The notes under the pieces: model-generated
Told to the model about the DNA's origin: nothing
Databases searched by the model: none
What the model saw: the letters and a program-made list of their open reading frames with translations, nothing else
Shown here: positions 60 through 1,711 of the stretch, piece by piece
Layout: each line of letters opens with the position of its first letter
How positions within the stretch are numbered: position 1 is the first letter of the stretch
Translations under genes and position numbers: made by a program
Virus record (IMG/VR): IMGVR_UViG_2734482780_000006
From: a virus
Lineage: Duplodnaviria; Heunggongvirae; Uroviricota; Caudoviricetes
Length of the DNA stretch: 5,868 nucleotides
Strand: one strand, 5' to 3'

Positions 60-1536
60 CAGGCTGCGGCATTTTGTCCGCGCCGGGCTTCGCTCACTGT
101 TCAGGCCGGAGCCACAGACCGCCGTTGAATGGGCGGATGCTAATTACTATCTCCCGAAAGAATCCGCATACCAGGAAGGGCGCTGGGAAACACTGCCCTT
201 TCAGCGGGCCATCATGAATGCGATGGGCAGCGACTACATCCGTGAGGTGAATGTGGTGAAGTCTGCCCGTGTCGGTTATTCCAAAATGCTGCTGGGTGTT
301 TATGCCTACTTTATAGAGCATAAGCAGCGCAACACCCTTATCTGGTTGCCGACGGATGGTGATGCCGAGAACTTTATGAAAACCCACGTTGAGCCGACCA
401 TCCGCGATATTCCGTCGCTGCTGGCGCTGGCTCCGTGGTATGGCAAAAAGCACCGGGATAACACGCTCACTATGAAGCGTTTTTCCAATGGTCGTGGCTT
501 CTGGTGCCTGGGCGGTAAAGCGGCAAAAAACTACCGTGAAAAGTCGGTGGATGTGGCGGGTTATGATGAACTTGCTGCCTTTGATGAGGATATTGAACAG
601 GAAGGCTCTCCGACGTTCCTTGGCGACAAACGTATTGAAGGCTCGGTCTGGCCAAAGTCCATCCGTGGCTCCACGCCCAAAGTGAGAGGCACCTGCCAGA
701 TTGAGCGTGCAGCCAGTGAATCCCTGCATTTTATGCGTTTTCATGTTGCCTGCCCGCACTGCGGGGAGGAGCAGTATCTTAAATTTGGCGACAAAGAGAC
801 GCCGTTTGGCCTCAAATGGACGCCGGATGACCCCTCCAGCGTGTTTTATCTCTGCGAGCATAATGCCTGCGTCATCCGCCAGCAGGAGCTGGACTTTACT
901 GATGCCCGTTATATCTGCGAAAAGACCGGGATCTGGACCCGTGATGGCATTCTCTGGTTTTCGTCATCCGGTGAAGAGATTGAGCCGCCGGACAGTGTGA
1001 CCTTTCACATCTGGACGGCGTACAGCCCGTTCACCACCTGGGTGCAGATTGTCAAAGACTGGATGAAGACGAAAGGGGATACGGGAAAACGTAAAACCTT
1101 CGTGAACACCACGCTCGGTGAGACATGGGAAGCGAAAATCGGCGAACGTCCGGATGCTGAGGTGATGGCGGAGCGGAAAGAGCATTATTCAGCGCCCGTT
1201 CCTGACCGTGTGGCTTACCTGACCGCCGGTATCGACTCCCAGCTGGACCGCTACGAAATGCGCGTATGGGGATGGGGGCCGGGTGAGGAAAGCTGGCTGA
1301 TTGACCGGCAGATTATTATGGGTCGCCACGACGATGAACAGACGCTGCTGCGTGTGGATGAGGCCATCAATAAAACCTATACCCGCCGGAATGGTGCAGA
1401 AATGTCGGTATCCCGTATCTGCTGGGATACTGGCGGGATTGACCCGACCATTGTGTATGAACGCTCGAAAAAACATGGGCTGTTCCGGGTGATCCCCATT
1501 AAAGGGGCATCCGTCTACGGAAACCCATGCGACTGA
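34..1536 (+). CDS. A: Terminase large subunit (lambda gpA-like), 3'-truncated by deletion: about 495 homologous codons plus 5 junction codons (NPCD, stop); probably non-functional
   Basis: The 500-aa ORF starts at GTG 34 (MNISNSQVNRLRHFVRAGL...) and is near-identical along its length to lambda gpA as I recall it, including the VVKSARVGYSK P-loop region and the CPHCGEEQ...CEHNAC segment. Homology stops at ...IPIKGASVYG (lambda continues KPVASMPRK...), whereas this ORF reads NPCD then TGA at 1534-1536. Lambda gpA is 641 aa, so about 146 C-terminal residues are missing. Confidence 0.9.
   Translation: MNISNSQVNRLRHFVRAGLRSLFRPEPQTAVEWADANYYLPKESAYQEGRWETLPFQRAIMNAMGSDYIREVNVVKSARVGYSKMLLGVYAYFIEHKQRNTLIWLPTDGDAENFMKTHVEPTIRDIPSLLALAPWYGKKHRDNTLTMKRFSNGRGFWCLGGKAAKNYREKSVDVAGYDELAAFDEDIEQEGSPTFLGDKRIEGSVWPKSIRGSTPKVRGTCQIERAASESLHFMRFHVACPHCGEEQYLKFGDKETPFGLKWTPDDPSSVFYLCEHNACVIRQQELDFTDARYICEKTGIWTRDGILWFSSSGEEIEPPDSVTFHIWTAYSPFTTWVQIVKDWMKTKGDTGKRKTFVNTTLGETWEAKIGERPDAEVMAERKEHYSAPVPDRVAYLTAGIDSQLDRYEMRVWGWGPGEESWLIDRQIIMGRHDDEQTLLRVDEAINKTYTRRNGAEMSVSRICWDTGGIDPTIVYERSKKHGLFRVIPIKGASVYGNPCD
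1520..1535. other. Deletion/recombination junction between the truncated terminase A gene and an internal point of the side tail fiber gene
   Basis: gpA homology in frame 1 ends at about 1521-1523, and Stf homology (THATDAADSARAASTSAGQAA...) begins in frame 2 at about 1526-1532. Frame 2 is open from 1493 but has no ATG, GTG or TTG before 1712. Confidence 0.75.
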
Positions 1537-1711
1537 TGCTGCGGACTCAGCACGCGCCGCCAGCACGTCCGCCGGACAGGCTGCGACGTCGGCTCAGGAA
1601 GCGTCTTCCGGCGCAGAAACGGCATCAGCAAAGGCCACTGAGGCATCAAAAAGTGCCGCTGCTGCAGAGTCCTCAAAACGCGCGGCGGCCACCAGTGCCG
1701 GTGCGGCGAAA

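Follow-up and report, generated by a model that had tools for sequence, protein, structure and literature searches.

A truncated terminase gene A joined to the interior of stf in a defective lambdoid prophage of E. coli, probably through one microhomology-mediated deletion

The closest described counterparts of the locus reported here are two prophages of E. coli K-12. In DLP12 (nohD-aaaD'-tfaD), the nu1 homologue is intact, A is truncated, and the whole head/tail block was lost at one junction that shows 3 bp of microhomology and joins A codon 103 to tfa codon 49, with ~21.9 kb missing and stf wholly gone. In Qin (nohA-stfQ'), the packaging gene runs directly into the interior of stf (Nu1 177 / A 3 to stf 709), only the C-terminal third of Stf is left, and ~21.1 kb is missing. 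No nu1 or A was found in K-12 Rac, and a literature search on aaaD/nohD returned unrelated acronyms only. Deletions by short-homology illegitimate recombination and by replication slippage are established in E. coli and lambda. Elements without morphogenesis genes are also found among the cos-PICIs, which rely on the terminase and capsids of a lambda-like helper; these islands are compact, bring their own integrase and replication genes, and carry rpp beside cos (PMC9026076).

Here, we analyzed a stretch of 5,868 nucleotides (the window; IMG/VR record IMGVR_UViG_2734482780_000006, Caudoviricetes), which is very probably the late-operon end of a defective lambdoid E. coli prophage shaped by one microhomology-mediated deletion of ~17-18 kb. 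It shares with DLP12 the nu1 homologue, the truncated A and the loss of the head/tail block by one junction, and with Qin the direct fusion of a packaging gene to an internal point of stf as well as the A allele type, but its breakpoints differ from those of both. The finding is a fresh instance of a well-known process of prophage decay. All genes in the window lie on the plus strand, and the first is the 3' end of nu1 (1-59), encoding the small terminase subunit, which is collinear with lambda 678-736 (lambda nu1, 191-736) and whose stop codon TAA at 57-59 overlaps the start of A.

To the right of nu1, the sequence passes from A into stf at a single joint. Blastn aligned window positions 1-1523 without gaps to lambda J02459 678-2200 (98.0% identity) and to phage PhiR42_1 24175-25697 (100%), and positions 1524-1995 to lambda 20077-20548 (87.5%); the prophage right arms of E. 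coli C41, ZYB62 and A2 match window positions 1518-5868 at 99.9%. Since the BLAST E value is 0 on both flanks, a chance match is not in question. Given the fact that lambda A spans 711-2636 and orf-401 (the 5' part of stf) starts at 19650, the joint falls inside A codon 497 and at stf codon 143. The first-pass annotation, made from the sequence alone, had described A as joined directly to mid-stf by a deletion of about 17 kb, with gpA homology ending near codon 495 and Stf entered near residue 145. The single junction, the abutting alignments and the absence of lambda 2201-20076 bear out this description, and both measured codons lie within two of the estimates. The 5-10 nt that it had placed between the two homologies do not exist.

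The window was aligned with both parental sequences across the junction (1518-1526), and the base-by-base alignment showed that the last A-only base is 1521 and the first stf-only base is 1524, the two homologies abutting at a common AA (1522-1523) without filler DNA. Inspection of the parents for microhomology, as the annotation had proposed, placed this AA within an imperfect 7/9 match (CGGAAAgCC in A, CGGcAACCC in stf). In simulations, 2 bp of perfect microhomology at the junction had P = 0.16, and 7 matches in a 12-nt frame were mildly unusual (P = 0.018). Intact A would run on from window position 1523 as ...GCCGGTGGCCAGC, and the 29-mer spanning the window junction is CCGTCTACGGAAACCCATGCGACTGATGC. 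GC is 0.56 before the joint and 0.62 after it, and AT skew goes up there from 0.02 to 0.35. A long A-stf homology as the driver of the deletion was ruled out, the parents matching at only 7 of 9 bases there.

The truncated large-terminase gene A' occupies 34-1536 in the ORF list and reads in frame 1; it encodes 500 aa, namely gpA 1-496 followed by N-P-C-D and TGA, which are read from stf DNA in the wrong frame. The remaining stf sequence lies in frame 2, so the junction is out of frame, as had been noticed at first reading. The GpA_ATPase domain (PF05876) of A' is complete (profile positions 3-237 of 247, E = 1e-50), with a coverage equal to that of lambda gpA, whereas GpA_nuclease (PF20454) is cut (profile 2-178 of 294 vs 2-286 in lambda gpA), which rules out a naturally short terminase with a complete C-terminus. 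Residues 497-641 are missing, including the C-terminal portal (prohead) binding segment. Loss of this 3' quarter of A takes from gpA' 40% of its nuclease domain, the distal coiled coil and the C-terminus that docks on the portal; the Nu1-binding N-terminus and the ATPase domain remain. Since TerL docks on the portal via its C-terminus (PMC9026076), gpA minus 145 residues cannot package DNA; loss of the last 5 gpA codons alone, as in Aam42, already blocks prohead binding (PMC4856287).

The 5'-truncated side-tail-fibre gene 'stf (1523-3709), delimited by homology to C41, ZYB62, A2 and lambda orf-401, runs in frame 2 from codon 143 to the native stop. This frame is open from 1493 to 3709, and its first start codon is the ATG at 1712. 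The prophage tail fibre N-terminal domain PF08400, which serves in tail attachment, is absent from the translation of 1493-3709 and present at residues 1-134 of the intact ZYB62 Stf, and the remnant enters PHROG tail-fibre profiles at positions 135-144. Both results rule out a native Stf N-terminus. The central Ala/Ser-rich shaft is kept, and the ORF stays open to the stop of ZYB62 Stf, where the DUF4376 gene follows. Both gpA' and Stf' are dead for virion assembly. An exact-protein look-up found no record of the 665-aa ORF at 1712-3709. The minus-strand ORFs across the junction (1189-1566, 1515-2009 and 1594-2985) and the frame-3 ORF at 1527-1862 gave no Pfam match and were taken as by-products of the GC-/Ala-rich stf repeats, not as genes.

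Downstream, an intact DUF4376 gene (3709-4275; Pfam DUF4376, E = 8e-17) takes the position of a tail-fibre assembly gene 3' of stf, its ATG overlapping the stf stop by one base. It matches phrog_1141, which belongs to the tail category and is called "tail fiber protein" there (E = 4e-79), and it is also annotated in C41, ZYB62 and A2. A remnant of the tail fibre assembly gene tfa lies at 4348-4457, a position transferred from the PGAP annotation of C41 (L002 14831-14940) and ZYB62, in both of which it is labelled "frameshifted; incomplete"; it is an additional scar of prophage decay. After a spacer (~4460-5071) with 27-30% GC in the GC profile comes the 5' part of a YadA-like trimeric-autotransporter gene (5072-5868; Pfam YadA_head and YadA_stalk), which runs off the window and is a cargo gene at the right end of the prophage.

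The extent of the missing DNA was measured against four references: 17,876 bp relative to lambda (coordinates 2201-20076), 17,963 bp relative to PhiR42_1, 17,175 bp relative to A2, the closest site-mate, which is without lom, and 18,446 bp relative to C41, an IS3 element included. The first-pass estimate was ~17 kb. On the lambda map, the genes in this interval are A', W, B, C, Nu3, D, E, FI, FII, Z, U, V, G, T, H, M, L, K, I, J, lom and 'stf. Lambdoid late genes are thus kept and genes essential for virion morphogenesis are gone, which is what characterizes a defective prophage of the Rac/Qin/DLP12 kind. The window covers 33 nt to the left of A, to which a Logan contig described below adds 10 nt; the head and tail genes have probably been lost from the genome as a whole, and the element presumably no longer forms particles by itself.

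The relatives of the right arm point to a chromosomal site. The YadA-like gene, within which the window ends, is followed by uspF-ompN in five complete genomes (C41, ZYB62, A2, mip270_05 and JNU), and by this neighbourhood the window's prophage most likely sits at the Rac attachment region. In C41 and A2, the Rac region is undeleted and reads ydaV ... nohD-A-W ... J-stf-DUF4376-tfa'-YadA-like, then uspF and ompN. ZYB62 carries a sister prophage at the Rac site that resembles the window in its stf-DUF4376-tfa'-YadA-like-uspF segment (99.9% identical) and in a deletion that starts inside A. Unlike in the window, however, its deletion of ~15.6 kb leaves stf intact and fuses A codon 394 in frame with J codon 646, so that an 880-aa chimeric ORF results.

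The A gene of the window has a different affinity from the right arm. It is a Qin-type allele, 100% identical to PhiR42_1 and E. coli W, and differs from the A genes of C41, ZYB62 and A2 at 30-40 positions (2.0-2.6%). With the A allele and the right arm matching different strains, the exact undeleted parent is present in no sequenced genome. Because the A allele is Qin-type and the right arm matches Rac-site prophages, the parent either was a mosaic prophage or had itself arisen by exchange between prophages, before the deletion or together with it. Mosaic structure is well documented among these prophages: the stf-DUF4376 module (96.5%) occurs at prfC behind a different terminase in strains 1303 and ARS-C101, and a DUF4376'-tfa'-YadA-like relic adjoins an unrelated baseplate-bearing prophage in mip270_05 and JNU.

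To place the junction among other deletions of the head/tail block, 13 junctions (the window's and 12 others, from 12 elements) were mapped to PhiR42_1 coordinates; the comparison cases had been ranked by coverage of the window query, which favours retained flanks. Besides the window (A codon 497 to stf codon 143), ZYB62, DLP12 and Qin, the set comprises 11PC (A 490 to stf 259), Z226-5 (A 363 to stf 141), GmM062 (A 390 to stf 69), ET490 (A 484 to lom 123), MLI105 (A 637 to lom 119), GPEC1405 (B 211 to lom 57), NWU_4 (B 210 to stf 16) and 2014C-3011, with a first junction from B 459 to H 604 and a second from H 722 to lom 118. Among the other 12 deletions, the right end falls in J, H, lom, stf or tfa, the left end in Nu1, A or B. 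None of the 12 matches the breakpoint pair of the window, and no two junctions agree at both ends, so the junctions represent independent events. Loss of the head/tail block is an outcome that recurs, whereas the event itself does not. Close breakpoints were also observed in the set (stf 141/143; lom 118/119/123; B 210/211; A 390/394), and four breakpoint pairs lie ≤11 nt apart, with P ~0.009 under a uniform null for a threshold chosen post hoc and a query-ranked sample.

The A'-'stf pseudogenes of Z226-5, 11PC and GmM062 are the nearest in kind, since they join the same gene pair; they carry PGAP labels of frameshifted or partial terminase and tail genes, and the window resembles the many terminase/tail-fibre pseudogenes that PGAP annotates. 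In Z226-5, the break in stf lies only ~8 nt from that of the window; the left breakpoints of all three differ from the window's, however, and the three deletions are therefore independent of it. Their left flanks are of the Qin or DLP12 type (ynfO/ylcI, ydfO/DUF1398), and two of them have tfaQ-pinQ on the right, together with stf C-terminal modules that differ.

Perfect microhomology at the individual junctions of the set ranges from 1 to 5 bp. The total for the 11 clean junctions is 31 bp, which 0 of 20,000 simulations reached (expectation, 7.7 +/- 3.3). The use of microhomology is thus evident for the junction set as a whole, and not for the window junction alone (P = 0.16). Because the summed microhomology exceeds expectation, the class is best explained by RecA-independent short-homology recombination or slippage, which the junctions resemble in their 1-5 bp of microhomology and in having neither filler nor a site-specific signal; the enzymology (slippage, end joining, a role of gyrase) cannot be read from the junction sequence. 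The parallels with DLP12 and Qin drawn in the first-pass annotation are real. Its further suggestion of a recurrent deletion route through short homology between A and stf held in part: microhomology is found across the set, but the ends vary and no breakpoint pair is common. A breakpoint shared with DLP12, Qin or Rac was ruled out, the coordinates being hundreds to thousands of bases apart in the first two and Rac lacking nu1 and A.

The junction itself is rare. A 161-nt junction query found the joint spanned in 0 of 5,426 complete E. coli genomes, exact junction 29-38-mers had no match in one-genome-per-species representatives, IMG/VR or JGI metagenomes, and a junction 20-mer had none in metagenomes. 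A match of the 20-mer in Pedobacter sp. BAL39 was set aside as chance, 1.08 being expected and the flanks being unrelated. The joint was found again in a Logan contig reported for 2 samples (SRR2239636_353), which matches window positions 1-1844 at 100%, carries 1,523 bp on one side of the joint and 320 bp on the other, and has the same junction and the same 500-aa product. The kept A segment shows 0 changes in 1,523 bp relative to intact A genes (PhiR42_1, E. coli W and others), and the right arm has 3 differences from C41 in 4,351 bases. On the basis of this near-identity on both sides of the joint, no decay has built up after the deletion, which appears to be recent.

Taken together, the junction would be best explained by a RecA-independent, microhomology-mediated deletion (replication slippage or end joining) at the AA within the 7/9 match. 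Such an event would have removed ~17-18 kb from A codon 497 to stf codon 142, and with it the 3' quarter of A, the head genes W to FII, the tail genes Z to J, lom if there was one, and stf codons 1-142. We infer this mechanism from established knowledge of such deletions, and the event probably took place within one prophage that was already mosaic. In its favour we count the sister prophages at the Rac site, with their undeleted (C41, A2) and differently deleted (ZYB62) states; against it we count the mismatch of the A allele with the right-arm relatives, the 2-bp microhomology, which is not above chance, and the 33 nt available to the left of A.

The allele mismatch could also arise if the junction were one end of an inter-prophage rearrangement, in which the A gene of a Qin-site prophage recombined with the oppositely oriented stf of a Rac-site prophage and a terminus-spanning inversion followed without any loss of genes. 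The ends of such an inversion would read nu1-A(1-496)-stf(143-end)-uspF and stf(1-142)-A(498-641)-W-B..., and the predicted reciprocal junction, stf(1-142)::A(498-641), is ...CGTGAGGCGGCAAGCCGGTGGCCAGC... Indeed, Qin-type alleles with ynfO/ydfO/gnsB as neighbours match the A part of the window at 100% (PhiR42_1; ~99% in GmM062 and ET490), Rac-site prophages that diverge in their own A at the 30-40 positions given above match its right arm at 99.9%, and the late operons of K-12 Rac and Qin are oppositely oriented, which is the geometry needed. Nevertheless, we regard the inversion as improbable. It requires two simultaneous illegitimate joints, compared with one for a deletion, and all 12 of the 12 comparison cases, which come from complete genomes, are plain internal deletions. 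Moreover, since lambdoid modules shuffle freely, as the stf-DUF4376 module at prfC in 1303 and ARS-C101 illustrates, a mosaic parent explains the mismatch.

Retention of the remnant for a function, either as a helper-dependent, cos-packaged satellite or as a domesticated nu1-A' or stf'-DUF4376 module (supplying tail-fibre DNA, or interfering as a terminase fragment), is very unlikely. Such a role would fit the finding that nu1 with part of A to the left, and stf/tfa to the right, survive in many independent deletions, including DLP12 and Qin, but the comparison sample was ranked by query coverage and so favours these flanks. Both the DUF4376 gene and the ATPase half of A have stayed intact, and remnants of this kind recombine with infecting lambdoid phages and donate functional genes to them (PMC3945230); yet, as the 1,523 bp of A show 0 changes, too little time has passed since the event for retention to be a sign of selection. 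Stf' lacks the tail-attachment domain, and its first start codon is at 1712. Unlike PICIs, the window carries truncated phage late genes, and within 1-5868 no satellite hallmark was found (integrase, replication genes or an rpp-type redirecting gene next to cos), a region that would be expected beyond its ends. A more specific form, in which nu1 and gpA(1-496) would poison the terminase of superinfecting lambdoid phages as a dominant-negative partner, is more doubtful still, its support being the retention seen in a retention-biased sample; if true, it would explain the frequent retention of nu1 with part of A and the clustering of breakpoints.

Equally far-fetched is an assembly chimera of two prophage regions from one genome or sample, which the absence of the junction from every other public complete genome and the repeat-rich, often misassembled nature of lambdoid prophages might suggest, since the sequence common to both sides, 2 bp (9 bp imperfect), is far below any assembler k-mer, so that no repeat at the joint explains the join, and a separate Logan assembly (SRR2239636_353), although it may stem from the window's own reads, has the identical junction.

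Read as a deletion, the locus opens no new question through its junction; it offers a clean, dated case in which one microhomology-mediated deletion would have turned a lambdoid prophage cryptic and left packaging and tail-fibre fragments behind. With its intact (C41, A2) and differently deleted (ZYB62) sisters, it forms a small natural series of independent decay events. PGAP calls comparable fusions "terminase gpA endonuclease subunit", and annotators should be aware that such a terminase label may stand on a fusion of this kind.

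When the head/tail-block deletion junctions were placed on the coordinates of phage PhiR42_1, deletions that arose independently in different strains were found to have breakpoints 4–17 nt apart at four places, in A (25376-25387), B (26961-26965), lom (42921-42938) and stf (43649-43661). Four pairs of breakpoints were no more than 11 nt apart (post hoc P ~0.009 under a uniform null), and the motif GTGTGGCTTAC is common to A at codon ~392 and lom at codon ~118. These clustered breakpoints may represent hot spots of illegitimate recombination, or may be an artefact of the sampling of cases.

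In the prophage of E. coli ZYB62 (NZ_CP074366.1), a sister of the window's prophage at the same chromosomal site, residues 1-393 of gpA run in frame into the tail-tip protein J, of which the C-terminal 487 residues are kept (15034-17673). PGAP treats the resulting fusion ORF of 880 aa as intact and labels it “terminase gpA endonuclease subunit”. The “undeleted” sister prophages of E. coli C41 (10394-13046) and A2 (5049-7778 and 15428-16062) are likewise decaying: stf is split in C41, with an IS3 element present between J and stf, and in A2 the genes for protease/scaffold, decoration, major capsid and tail assembly are annotated with frameshifts.

A stf-DUF4376 module 96.5% identical to that of the window is present in E. 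coli strains 1303 (21243-24106) and ARS-C101 (21169-24032), where it belongs to a lambdoid prophage that occupies the prfC site and carries a different terminase allele. The module at prfC exemplifies the exchange of modules between prophages at separate loci. Within the window, the Ala/Ser-rich shaft region of stf is overlapped by long ORFs at 1594-2985 and 1515-2009 on the minus strand, neither of which gave a match in a Pfam search, and by another at 1869-2576 in an alternative frame of the plus strand. These overlapping ORFs look like by-products of the repetitive, biased GC-rich sequence.

The right end of the window (4460-5868) consists of a spacer of 27–30% GC followed by a YadA-like trimeric-autotransporter gene, which has YadA_head repeats and a YadA_stalk and continues past the window end. 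This gene is low-GC cargo at the prophage end and adjoins uspF in relatives. A relic of the right end was also detected in E. coli mip270_05 (25633-28524) and JNU (2501-5392), comprising a 102-nt stub of the stf 5′ end, a shortened DUF4376 gene, a tfa remnant and the YadA-like gene. Its neighbour in both is a wholly different prophage with a baseplate, located at the Rac site, and the relic seems to stay while the adjoining prophage gets replaced.
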